Of a DNA stretch of 41,203 bases, positions 12,305-13,069 are shown one piece after another (position 1 is the first letter of the stretch; every line of letters starts with the position of its first letter). The notes below the pieces were generated by a model. It saw only the letters and a list, made by a program, of their open reading frames with translations, searched no databases and was not told the origin of the DNA. The translations under genes and the position numbers were made by a program. The DNA lies in IMG/VR virus record IMGVR_UViG_3300035698_009173; one strand, written 5' to 3'. Origin of the DNA: a virus.

Positions 12305-13069
12305 ATGAACAAGAAATTTCAGGTTGAGACGATTCTCAAAGCGCAGCAAAACGACAAAGCAGCAAGGGATCTGGTATGCCGTCAGGGCGCAGGGCTCGTT
12401 CACAAGATTGCTCATAAGGTCAGTCGAGCCTACGGACAAGATCAGCGTGATCTCGCACAAGCGGGATTTTTGGGCTTGTTGCAAGGCGTTGACAAATTCG
12501 ATGAAAACAGGGGGGTTATGCCGTCCACCTTCATTATCTTTTGGATCAAGGCGGAAGTGCTTAAACAGGCAAGGCATGGGGCAAGCTTGGTCAAGGGTCC
12601 GCAATCCAATGGAGCGCAAAAAGCACATTATCACCTTCGACGCACCGCAGCAAAATTGCAAGCCTTGACTGGCCAAGCGCCCGATTCCGTGGATATGGCC
12701 AAGGCGCTTAACCTGCCTGTTCACGTCGTCGAGGCTCAAAGACTCGTAATGCAGCCCGTCGCGTCCCTTAGCGCAGCTTCACCGGACGGCGCAAGCCTAG
12801 GTGACACCTTAGCAGACGAAGGCCCTACACCTGAGCAGAGCGCTGTACAAGCGCAAGCTCGATCTTGGACGGTGGAGATCATGAAGACTTTCCGACTCGA
12901 CTTGTCCGAAAAAGAGACGGCGATCTTCGATGCAAGGATTGCTTCGTCCGATCCTATCCCAGGCCGTGTGCTCGGTGATCAATTGGGTATGACGCGACAA
13001 GGTGTCAGCCAATATGAGATCAAGATCCGTGCCAAGTTGGAGAAGCGGATAAAGAATGTCCTGAAGTAG
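12305..13069 (+). CDS. sigma-70 family RNA polymerase sigma factor (group 3/4-like size)
   Basis: region 2-like GFLGLLQGVDKFDENRG..FIIFWIKAEVLKQ and C-terminal region 4 HTH LGDQLGMTRQGVSQYEIKIRAKL; RBS AAGGGAG. Confidence 0.65.
   Translation: MNKKFQVETILKAQQNDKAARDLVCRQGAGLVHKIAHKVSRAYGQDQRDLAQAGFLGLLQGVDKFDENRGVMPSTFIIFWIKAEVLKQARHGASLVKGPQSNGAQKAHYHLRRTAAKLQALTGQAPDSVDMAKALNLPVHVVEAQRLVMQPVASLSAASPDGASLGDTLADEGPTPEQSAVQAQARSWTVEIMKTFRLDLSEKETAIFDARIASSDPIPGRVLGDQLGMTRQGVSQYEIKIRAKLEKRIKNVLK

Follow-up and report, generated by a model that had tools for sequence, protein, structure and literature searches.

A sigma-70-family factor, probably expressed early, of a large phage-like element and the promoters that surround it

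Does a sigma factor gene embedded among host-type promoters serve a second promoter class? The question is raised by an open reading frame on the plus strand of the viral record IMGVR_UViG_3300035698_009173, a stretch of 41,203 nucleotides that is here called the window. The frame (12305..13069; ATG at 12305, TAG at 13067-13069) encodes 254 amino acids, and a first-pass annotation had read the product as a phage-encoded sigma-70 factor. Our analysis points, as the probable explanation, to a functional alternative sigma factor which belongs to a large phage-like element, is expressed early and re-targets the host core polymerase to element-specific promoters. Host RNA polymerase carrying the host primary sigma would transcribe the gene early, the product would then bind the host core polymerase, and the sigma-bound core would be directed to promoters unlike TTGACA/TATAAT and would switch on later genes, as in classical phage sigma cascades. 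About 70 kb of DNA was inspected, namely the window with ~20 kb on its left and ~9.5 kb on its right; a 60.6-kb composite was assembled from identical sequence on longer metagenome contigs, and 10 kb of the left part lies beyond it. The same element was also found on the ENA ERZ27316532 contigs k141_1437625 (56 kb) and k141_823474 (45 kb) and on the Logan contig SRR8526178_40107 (41 kb).

Domains and DNA-reading residues of the 254-residue protein

Profile searches placed the protein in the sigma-70 family. The Pfam model Sigma70_r2 (PF04542) matched residues 30-91 (E 1e-12; 48.1 bits for a cut-off of 24), Sigma70_r3 (PF04539) matched residues 110-179 slightly below its cut-off (E 2.4e-5; 24.8 bits versus 25.3) and the Pfam region 4 models gave no match at E<=1, so that the HMMER check suggested at first pass succeeded for region 2 and returned nothing for region 4. 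The NCBIfam sigma-70 superfamily model TIGR02937 covered residues 30-248 (49.9 bits, cut-off 42.9), and PHROG 351, 'RNA polymerase sigma factor', was matched at 4.9e-28. By phmmer against PDB sequences, residues 11-247 were aligned with RpoS, HrdB, SigA and RpoD, the stretch DLAQAGFLGLLQGVDKFD falling on region 2.2 of RpoS and HrdB. An AlphaFold2 model computed from a 63-sequence alignment had a mean pLDDT of 94.1; in this model, the region 3 helices (102-149) are followed by an extended linker (150-175) with the pattern SL..P....L.D.L.D, and the C-terminus forms a helix-turn-helix of helices 220-227 and 231-253. Foldseek aligned the model over 250-258 columns to sigma subunits in solved holoenzyme structures (E ~1e-11). 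When the C-terminal 69 residues were searched alone against sigma4 in the PDB, an E value of only 0.8 was obtained. Profiles, alignments and predicted structure together confirm the protein as a full-length sigma-70-family factor in which domains 2, 3 and 4, the full DNA- and core-binding set of a group 3 type sigma, are present (sigma2 ~18-93, sigma3 ~102-149, sigma3.2 linker ~150-175, sigma4 ~176-253) and region 1.1 is missing. The sigma region 2 and the region 4.2 helix-turn-helix recognised at first pass are therefore borne out; judging from the model, the latter is real, yet region 4 is too diverged for the Pfam models.

The narrower identities were ruled out by curated cut-offs. The protein is not an ECF (group 4) sigma because region 3 is present. 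The NCBIfam RpoH, RpoS, RpoD and SigB/F/G models were all aligned with residues ~10-250 at scores far under their equivalog cut-offs; the best of these matches were RpoH models (E ~1e-21 to 1e-22), which scored 78, 77.5 and 77.2 bits for cut-offs of 315, 241 and 323. As a primary sigma the protein scored 59.5 bits with RpoD_Cterm (cut-off 354), and it begins ~10 residues ahead of region 1.2/2.1. The MzaA model gave 48.3 bits for a cut-off of 800, the protein having 254 residues and MzaA ~700, and the PADLOC match to MzaA was weak (1.1e-8) and confined to residues 30-101.

Close relatives are few. Among 1.84 billion cluster representatives, which were searched exhaustively with HMMER, 25,351 matched at E<=1e-3 and only 2 of these fell below 1e-30 (50% and 40% identity). 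In an indexed search of 5.8 billion proteins, the identical protein and 2 relatives (53% and 48%) came up, each of them on a short metagenome contig. When metagenomes and genomes were scanned with a profile of the clade, one true relative was recovered, which is partial (contig L003); the remaining matches were discarded as ordinary cellular sigmas with 24-31% identity (39% across one short 71-residue match). Megablast against INPHARED gave no match and tblastn gave 2 weak ones (28-32% identity over about 70% of the protein), and no relatives were found in IMG/VR with either the protein or the clade profile. These searches place the protein in a very small clade that evolves fast and whose known members all come from a handful of metagenome contigs. 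The next-nearest ~60 proteins have an RpoH-like consensus (..WWIRA.., ..RKLF..L.., SRERVRQ.E).

The residues expected to read promoter DNA were mapped with the E. coli sigma-70 numbering and residue-to-base assignments established in the literature. On this correspondence, region 2.3/2.4 carries Y430->F, W433->F, Q437->A, T440->L and R441->K and keeps W434, whereas region 4.2 keeps R584 and Q589 and carries E585->Q and R588->S. The arginine R588 of housekeeping sigmas, which we take to contact the G of TTGACA, is thus a serine here, and the residues presumed to read position -12 (Q437->A, T440->L) are replaced in an RpoH-like manner (WIKAE). The region 4.2 helix (T/S)RQ(G/A)V(S/C)xxExK(I/L)R is invariant in the 6 clade members, including the 37%-identical protein of the related contig L035. 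Since this helix is invariant in the clade yet lacks the housekeeping arginine, we infer that the clade sigmas read a -35 element other than TTGACA; the conserved non-canonical helix is the best sequence-level argument for it. The region 2.3 aromatic positions, on the other hand, vary across the clade (FW, WH, SD, NE).

Two other roles for the protein can be weighed on these data. The first is a mimic of the host RpoH, which would turn on the host's chaperone or protease genes, instead of genes of the element, to the element's advantage. It would agree with the RpoH models heading the NCBIfam matches, with the WIKAE of region 2.4, with the RKLF..L carried by the consensus of the nearest database relatives and with the segment AQKAHYHLRR of the protein, which on our reading resembles the RpoH box of E. 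coli RpoH. However, the RpoH score of 78 bits stands against cut-offs of 315-323 and the RpoH-like relatives have SRERVRQ where the region 4.2 helix of this protein reads differently, and we regard this role as very unlikely. The second is a competitor or decoy which occupies the host core polymerase and so lowers host transcription without specific initiation, or else a part of an MzaA-type defence. The weak MzaA matches and the degenerate region 2.3 aromatics of some clade members could be read in that way. The MzaA matches, however, cover a generic sigma region only and no Mza partner genes lie nearby, whereas the invariant recognition helix of region 4.2 argues for sequence-specific DNA binding; such a role would be highly improbable.

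The early block and its host-type promoters

The sigma gene lies in a block of about 25 small units on the plus strand, which starts ~1.3 kb left of the window, runs to position 16300 (1..16300 within the window) and measures ~17.5 kb. Most units follow one plan: TTGACA-N16-TATAMT, a AGATGTAG-like stretch, GGGAGG, the ATG and, usually after the gene, a hairpin with a T-run terminator. Strict sites TTGAC[AT]-N16-18-TAnnnT on the plus strand numbered 19 between -1066 and 15301, for a mean of 0.49 in shuffled sequence, and 6 in the other ~44 kb (shuffle mean 1.8); a looser promoter scan of 1-20000 gave 57 sites versus 31.9 +/- 6.0. These counts uphold the initial statement that the early genes around the sigma gene use host sigma70-type promoters. 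The block is bounded on the left by a gene-free stretch of ~1.1 kb and on the right by an 854-bp gene-poor stretch, where the GC content falls from ~48% to ~40% outside the block. Its genes include a methyltransferase, a SNF2 helicase (8774-10768), the sigma factor and an ArdC anti-restriction protein (13580-14491), and almost all genes of the window are on the plus strand.

The promoters predicted for the sigma gene itself are of the same type. Directly 5' of it, a sigma-70-type promoter can be read at 12239..12267 (plus strand; TTGCAT at 12239-12244, 17 nt, CATACT at 12262-12267), followed by the Shine-Dalgarno sequence AAGGGAG (12293..12299) 5 nt ahead of the ATG. At the equivalent place, L003 has TTGACA-N16-TACATT and L035 has TTGACA-N16-TATATT. 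A second predicted promoter, the TG-extended TTGACA-N16-CATACT at 11972..11999 (plus strand), heads the unit formed by the sigma gene and a small upstream gene. From its sequence context, the sigma gene is predicted to be driven by host-type early promoters at 11972 and 12239. Early expression is suggested because the gene lies in a block headed by near-consensus host-type promoters and has a promoter of that type of its own.

The small upstream gene (12006..12218, plus strand; MDKP..EKI.VF..) encodes 70 amino acids and occupies the place directly 5' of the sigma gene in all relatives and was met in no other context. Its product is better conserved than the sigma factor (67% and 49% identity versus 48% and 39-42%) and gave no match in Pfam, PHROG or PADLOC. 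An AlphaFold2 model has a beta4-alpha topology (pLDDT 71); no fold was assigned, the best match, of Whirly/PC4/PUR-like topology, having an E value of 0.8. The 70-residue protein is a candidate partner of the sigma factor.

Downstream of the sigma stop codon, the segment 13070..13230 (plus strand) contains three terminator-like motifs made of a hairpin and a T-run (..GACTCCTTTTGTCC, GGAGTCCTTTTGCCC, ..ATCCTTTTGTCC) and the palindrome GTTCCATGTGGAAC, in the same layout as in the related contigs L001 and L035. The order Zn-ribbon gene, 70-residue gene, sigma gene, terminators, ArdC gene is kept in L001 (sigma identity 48%), L003 (39-42%) and L035 (37%). L035 is a 33-kb scaffold; together with L036 it represents a related element from a South China Sea cold-seep metagenome (PMC9357000). 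It is collinear with window positions 1873-14479 at 37-71% protein identity, the sigma factor being the least conserved gene there, and beyond ArdC the two sequences are unrelated.

Several smaller features were recorded in the same region. The palindrome GTTCCACGTGGAAC, of which one copy is imperfect, is found at 13169-13182 after the sigma gene and at 14493-14506 after ArdC, as well as at ~700, 2100 and 2150 in L001 and at 11196-11215 in L035; it is likely a site for a dimeric regulator or a part of the terminator module. A conserved ~18-nt motif AGGTAC(T/A)TAAGCGGCAGGC, followed by a GC-rich hairpin, is present at 5150-5175 and 11325-11400 of the window, 241-310 of L001, 9383-9400 of L035 and ~8195 of contig L022; it follows certain early genes as a single or double copy, ~45-110 nt ahead of the next TTGACA promoter. 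At 11417-11472, a 26-bp duplication (AAAAAGAAAAACTTGACAAAAAGTAA, x2.2) places two tandem -35 boxes before the Zn-ribbon gene at 11505. A conserved small open reading frame for a hydrophobic peptide of 32-34 residues ending in ..GLGMPGLS or ..GLPGMPGLS directly follows ArdC in the window (14555-14653), one extra gene intervening in L035 (12919-13023). The window (14825-14950) and L035 (13255-13345) also share, in the gap that follows ArdC, the conserved non-coding block CAGGATAA.AGGACA.TTAAAATCCTAT..TAGAATA.GACCCCC..TAGGATTT, which holds the inverted repeat AAATCCTA/TAGGATTT.

Promoter-like elements pointing against the early genes

The dispersed element CCCTTACAAA..AATTTAACA had been named at first pass as a candidate promoter for the phage sigma factor. 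Allowing at most 1 mismatch, CCCTTACAAA occurred 13 times (3.6 +/- 2.0 expected). As a plus-strand promoter the element was rejected: its two blocks are separated by ~4 bp, which is too short a distance for a -35/-10 pair, and the alternative pairing AATTTAA-N14/15-(T/C)GTCAA offers, on reading the sequence, no -10 hexamer in which position 2 is A and position 6 is T. On the minus strand, the dispersed copies read cTTGACA-N16/17-(TGn)TAAATT-ga..GTAAGGGGA, a full sigma-70-type promoter that often has an extended -10. The proposal is thus not supported, the element being more likely an ordinary host-type promoter which points against the early genes.

In the composite, TTGACA-N16/17-TAAATT-..GTAAGGGG was counted 9 times on the minus strand and never on the plus strand (shuffle mean 0.19, maximum 2). 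All the minus-strand copies lie within the early block and are oriented against its genes, none being upstream of later genes, and each is placed between the terminator of one unit and the plus-strand promoter of the next, back-to-back with the latter. The copy at 13235..13277 (TTGACG-N17-TAAATT-gatttGTAAGGGGA, which is CCCTTACAAA..AATTTAAG on the other strand) points into the 3' end of the sigma gene, and the one at 11861..11902 (TTGACA-N17-TAAATT-ccttGTAAGGGA) is back-to-back with the plus-strand promoter at 11972. Further minus-strand copies were located at 8634..8676 (TTGACA-N17-TAAATT-gatttGTAAGGGA), 7804..7845 (TTGACA-N16-TGtTAAATT-gatttGTAAGGGA), 6572..6613 (TTGTCA-N16-TAAATT-agcatGTAAGGGGA), 5634..5675 (TTGACA-N16-TAAATT-gatataTAAGGGGA) and 415..456 (TTGTCA-N16-TAAATT-agaagtacggga), the last with a diverged downstream part. 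In 15 copies taken from four elements, the -10 box is TAAATT without variation, whereas the plus-strand early promoters vary (TATACT, TATAAT, TATGAT, CATAAT). Copies stand at syntenic sites in L001, L003 and L035, and every relative has one immediately 3' of the sigma gene; the most distant relatives retain TTGACA and TTAAATT, while CCCCTTAC drifts.

The GTAAGGGG part, which is the transcribed or operator part of the antisense element, recurs in two other structures. At 14977..15097 (plus strand), in the 854-bp stretch that bounds the early block on the right, there is a tandem array of 6.7 copies of the 18-bp unit AAAAATTAATCCCCTTAC (98% matches) that shares the CCCCTTACAAA core with the dispersed elements; it could represent origin iterons or a binding array for a protein recognising CCCCTTACAAA. 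Some hundreds of bases past this array, the sister contig k141_1437625 comes to an end. The other structure is a 16-bp inverted repeat without mismatches (TGTAAGGGGAAAGCCC..GGGTTTTCCCCTTACA), again of the CCCCTTACA core, at 8578-8614 of L022, ~1.3 kb left of window position 1, within the ~1.1-kb gene-free left edge of the block and adjoining a run of 13 G.

Could these antisense elements be the targets of the sigma factor? Convergent or antisense transcription would then shut off the early genes, and the sigma gene itself via the 13277 copy. The strand bias and the confinement to the early block, the invariance of TAAATT as compared with the varying plus-strand promoters, and the syntenic copies, of which one always follows the sigma gene, are in favour of such a role. 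On the other side, the -35 box is a perfect housekeeping TTGACA, yet the sigma factor lacks the arginine that presumably reads its G; the host primary sigma accounts for the elements with no extra assumptions; and the GTAAGGGG core also occurs with no -35 box, in the array and in the inverted repeat, which fits a site for a DNA-binding protein. We therefore consider it improbable that the antisense elements are the sigma targets, and the same low probability is given to the more specific proposal in which the sigma factor, possibly with the 70-residue beta4-alpha protein, reads them and acts mainly as an 'off switch', programmed convergent transcription silencing the whole early block including its own gene. 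In that case, the 6.7-copy CCCCTTAC array would be a titrating or nucleating site.

Promoter targets, nature of the element and comparison with known systems

For an alternative sigma factor acting on element-specific promoters, the later genes should offer a motif of their own. Upstream regions of 31 non-early genes were searched de novo for exact dyads (4-6-mers, spacer 8-20) and for 6-8-mers, and were compared with shuffled sequence. Together with other observations, the outcome weighs against the proposed cascade. No motif of non-sigma-70 type rose above shuffle level in these 31 regions, and the enriched words were sigma-70-like, namely (A)GTTGACA and GTATAAT/TATAAAA. Across the 60.6-kb composite, consensuses of sigma32, sigma28, sigB, sigF/G, sigE, sigma54 and SPO1 type did not rise above noise. 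No capsid, portal, terminase or tail gene was found in the ~70 kb inspected, and 'late genes' are hypothetical here. Two clade members, with SD and NE at these positions, lack both Trp-equivalent residues of region 2.3, and canonical promoter melting by all members is therefore questionable. Finally, the argument from the -35- and -12-reading residues is founded on E. coli sigma-70 residue-to-base assignments taken over from the established literature.

Of the enriched words, AGTTGACA occurred in 5 regions, GTATAAT in 5 and TATAAAA in 6; TATAAAAG was borderline, with 4 sequences for a null maximum of 3-4. As a weak lead that is not significant, (C/G)TATAAA(A/G) stands with no -35 box 20-35 nt ahead of the start codon of several non-early genes. 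The T4 late promoter and the SPO1 middle and late consensuses were likewise absent or at noise level. A sigma-28-like excess on the plus strand was dismissed as due to a repeated coding segment and an A-rich strand bias. The sigma-32-type sequence CTTGAA-N13-14-CCCCATnT had no plus-strand occurrence in the 60.6 kb and one weak match on the minus strand, and runs of CCCCC, considered as sigma-32-like -10 boxes, were set aside, being scattered over both strands and mostly in coding sequence. Of the distinct promoter class expected at first pass, there remains the difference of the -35- and -12-reading residues from those of housekeeping sigmas, whereas no corresponding motif was detectable upstream of the 31 non-early genes or elsewhere in the ~70 kb. 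A distinct class for this sigma factor is plausible, and its cognate promoters probably lie in parts of the genome beyond the ~70 kb inspected.

The label 'phage-encoded' is in a similar position. The gene content is jumbo-phage-like and no virion gene was seen, and it is from gene content that we infer a large uncultured phage-like mobile element. Outside the early block there are an RNA ligase (22616-23302), RtcB (28708-29847), ParB-like and PcfJ-like proteins and a glycosyltransferase; further right of the window a radical-SAM protein, a Dam-type methylase, a primase and Ro60 were found, the called genes further right on contig L016 being preceded by tRNA-like sequence. At least 8 tRNA genes are present, in clusters, and an Rfam search matched only tRNAs.

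These neighbours could also be read as those of a large plasmid or another conjugative or integrative element, in which the sigma factor would serve establishment in a new host from a block resembling a leading region, with anti-restriction and helicase genes. ArdC, the SNF2 helicase, the methyltransferase and the ParB-like and PcfJ-like proteins would suit such an element, as would the missing virion genes and the want of relatives in IMG/VR and INPHARED. Against it, no relaxase, type IV secretion system (T4SS) or replication-initiator match was seen, and the element has features of jumbo phages (at least 8 clustered tRNAs, RtcB, RNA ligases, Ro60, a poly(ADP-ribose) polymerase (PARP) and arrays of tiny open reading frames; PMC7824862). 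The best match of the PARP is a 462-kb uncultured phage. A plasmid-like element is unlikely in our estimation, and the mechanism of the sigma factor would be identical for a plasmid and a phage.

Vault-type and RNA-repair parts occur together on this element. A PARP with a WGR domain (35592-36797) and a protein homologous to major vault protein (MVP; 38155-40659; MVP_shoulder 8.8e-23, Vault_3) are accompanied by two tRNA clusters (37871-38097 and 40736-41170), by RtcB and by a TROVE/Ro60 protein on the same contig (L016 20980-22505). Phage MVPs have been reported previously (bioRxiv 10.1101/2023.11.10.566534). The MVP-like protein had no match in IMG/VR, and the IMG/VR matches to the SNF2 helicase were only ~35% identical and on unrelated contigs. 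At 40921-40997, ARAGORN called a tRNA with an undetermined two-base anticodon ('at') which scored only 40.5 bits with the Rfam tRNA model; the locus may encode an aberrant or degenerate tRNA, or else an RNA resembling one.

The takeover of host transcription through sigma factors carried by phages and other mobile elements is classical, and phage sigmas, full-length RpoD-like ones included, are already well known, so the finding itself is expected biology. As the -35-reading helix is clade-invariant and non-canonical, the promoter is probably new and could serve in an orthogonal sigma/promoter pair. What is unusual is the conserved backward-pointing promoter with which each early unit ends, together with the 70-residue companion gene that is always present. 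The regular architecture of the early block makes programmed antisense transcription in early shut-off directly testable.

The setting recalls that of Bacillus phage SPO1, in which gp28, the product of an early gene, is the sigma factor that redirects the host core polymerase to middle promoters; gp28 is a shorter and highly diverged sigma, and its promoters are AGGAGA-N17-TTTNTTT. The likeness is in the placement of the sigma gene in a 'host-takeover'-style early region dense in strong host-type promoters and small genes, and therefore a cascade from host sigma to phage sigma would be expected here too. Unlike in SPO1, AGGAGA-N17-TTTNTTT has 0 matches, and no sequence relationship with gp28 was detected.

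Phages of the 7-11/phiEco32 type use host sigma-70 promoters for early genes and a phage sigma for middle and late ones, and they also encode a small regulator which shuts off host-sigma transcription (PMC4331800). In 7-11, genome analysis revealed a phage-specific motif (TGATGT core) that is also found upstream of the sigma gene (PMC4331800), whereas no such motif was found here and only a sigma-70-type promoter precedes the sigma gene. The protein resembles the cellular RpoH and other group 3 sigmas in its length class (~250-290 residues), in lacking region 1.1 while having regions 2, 3 and 4, and in a region 2.4 of WIKAE type; it differs from them in scoring under every equivalog cut-off and in having a clade-specific region 4.2 helix, TRQGVSQYEIK instead of SRERVRQ.E. 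The group 2 jumbo phages, in which RpoD-like full-length sigmas have been reported (Iyer et al. 2021, PMC7824862), differ from this element by a T4-type polymerase, a gp23-type capsid and gp33, none of them seen in the ~70 kb. tRNAs, RtcB, RNA ligases, Ro60 and long one-direction arrays of tiny open reading frames are typical of jumbo phages (PMC7824862), and as in those of group 2, a complete multi-domain sigma close to cellular forms is found here in the company of tRNAs, RtcB, RNA ligases and Ro60/TROVE.

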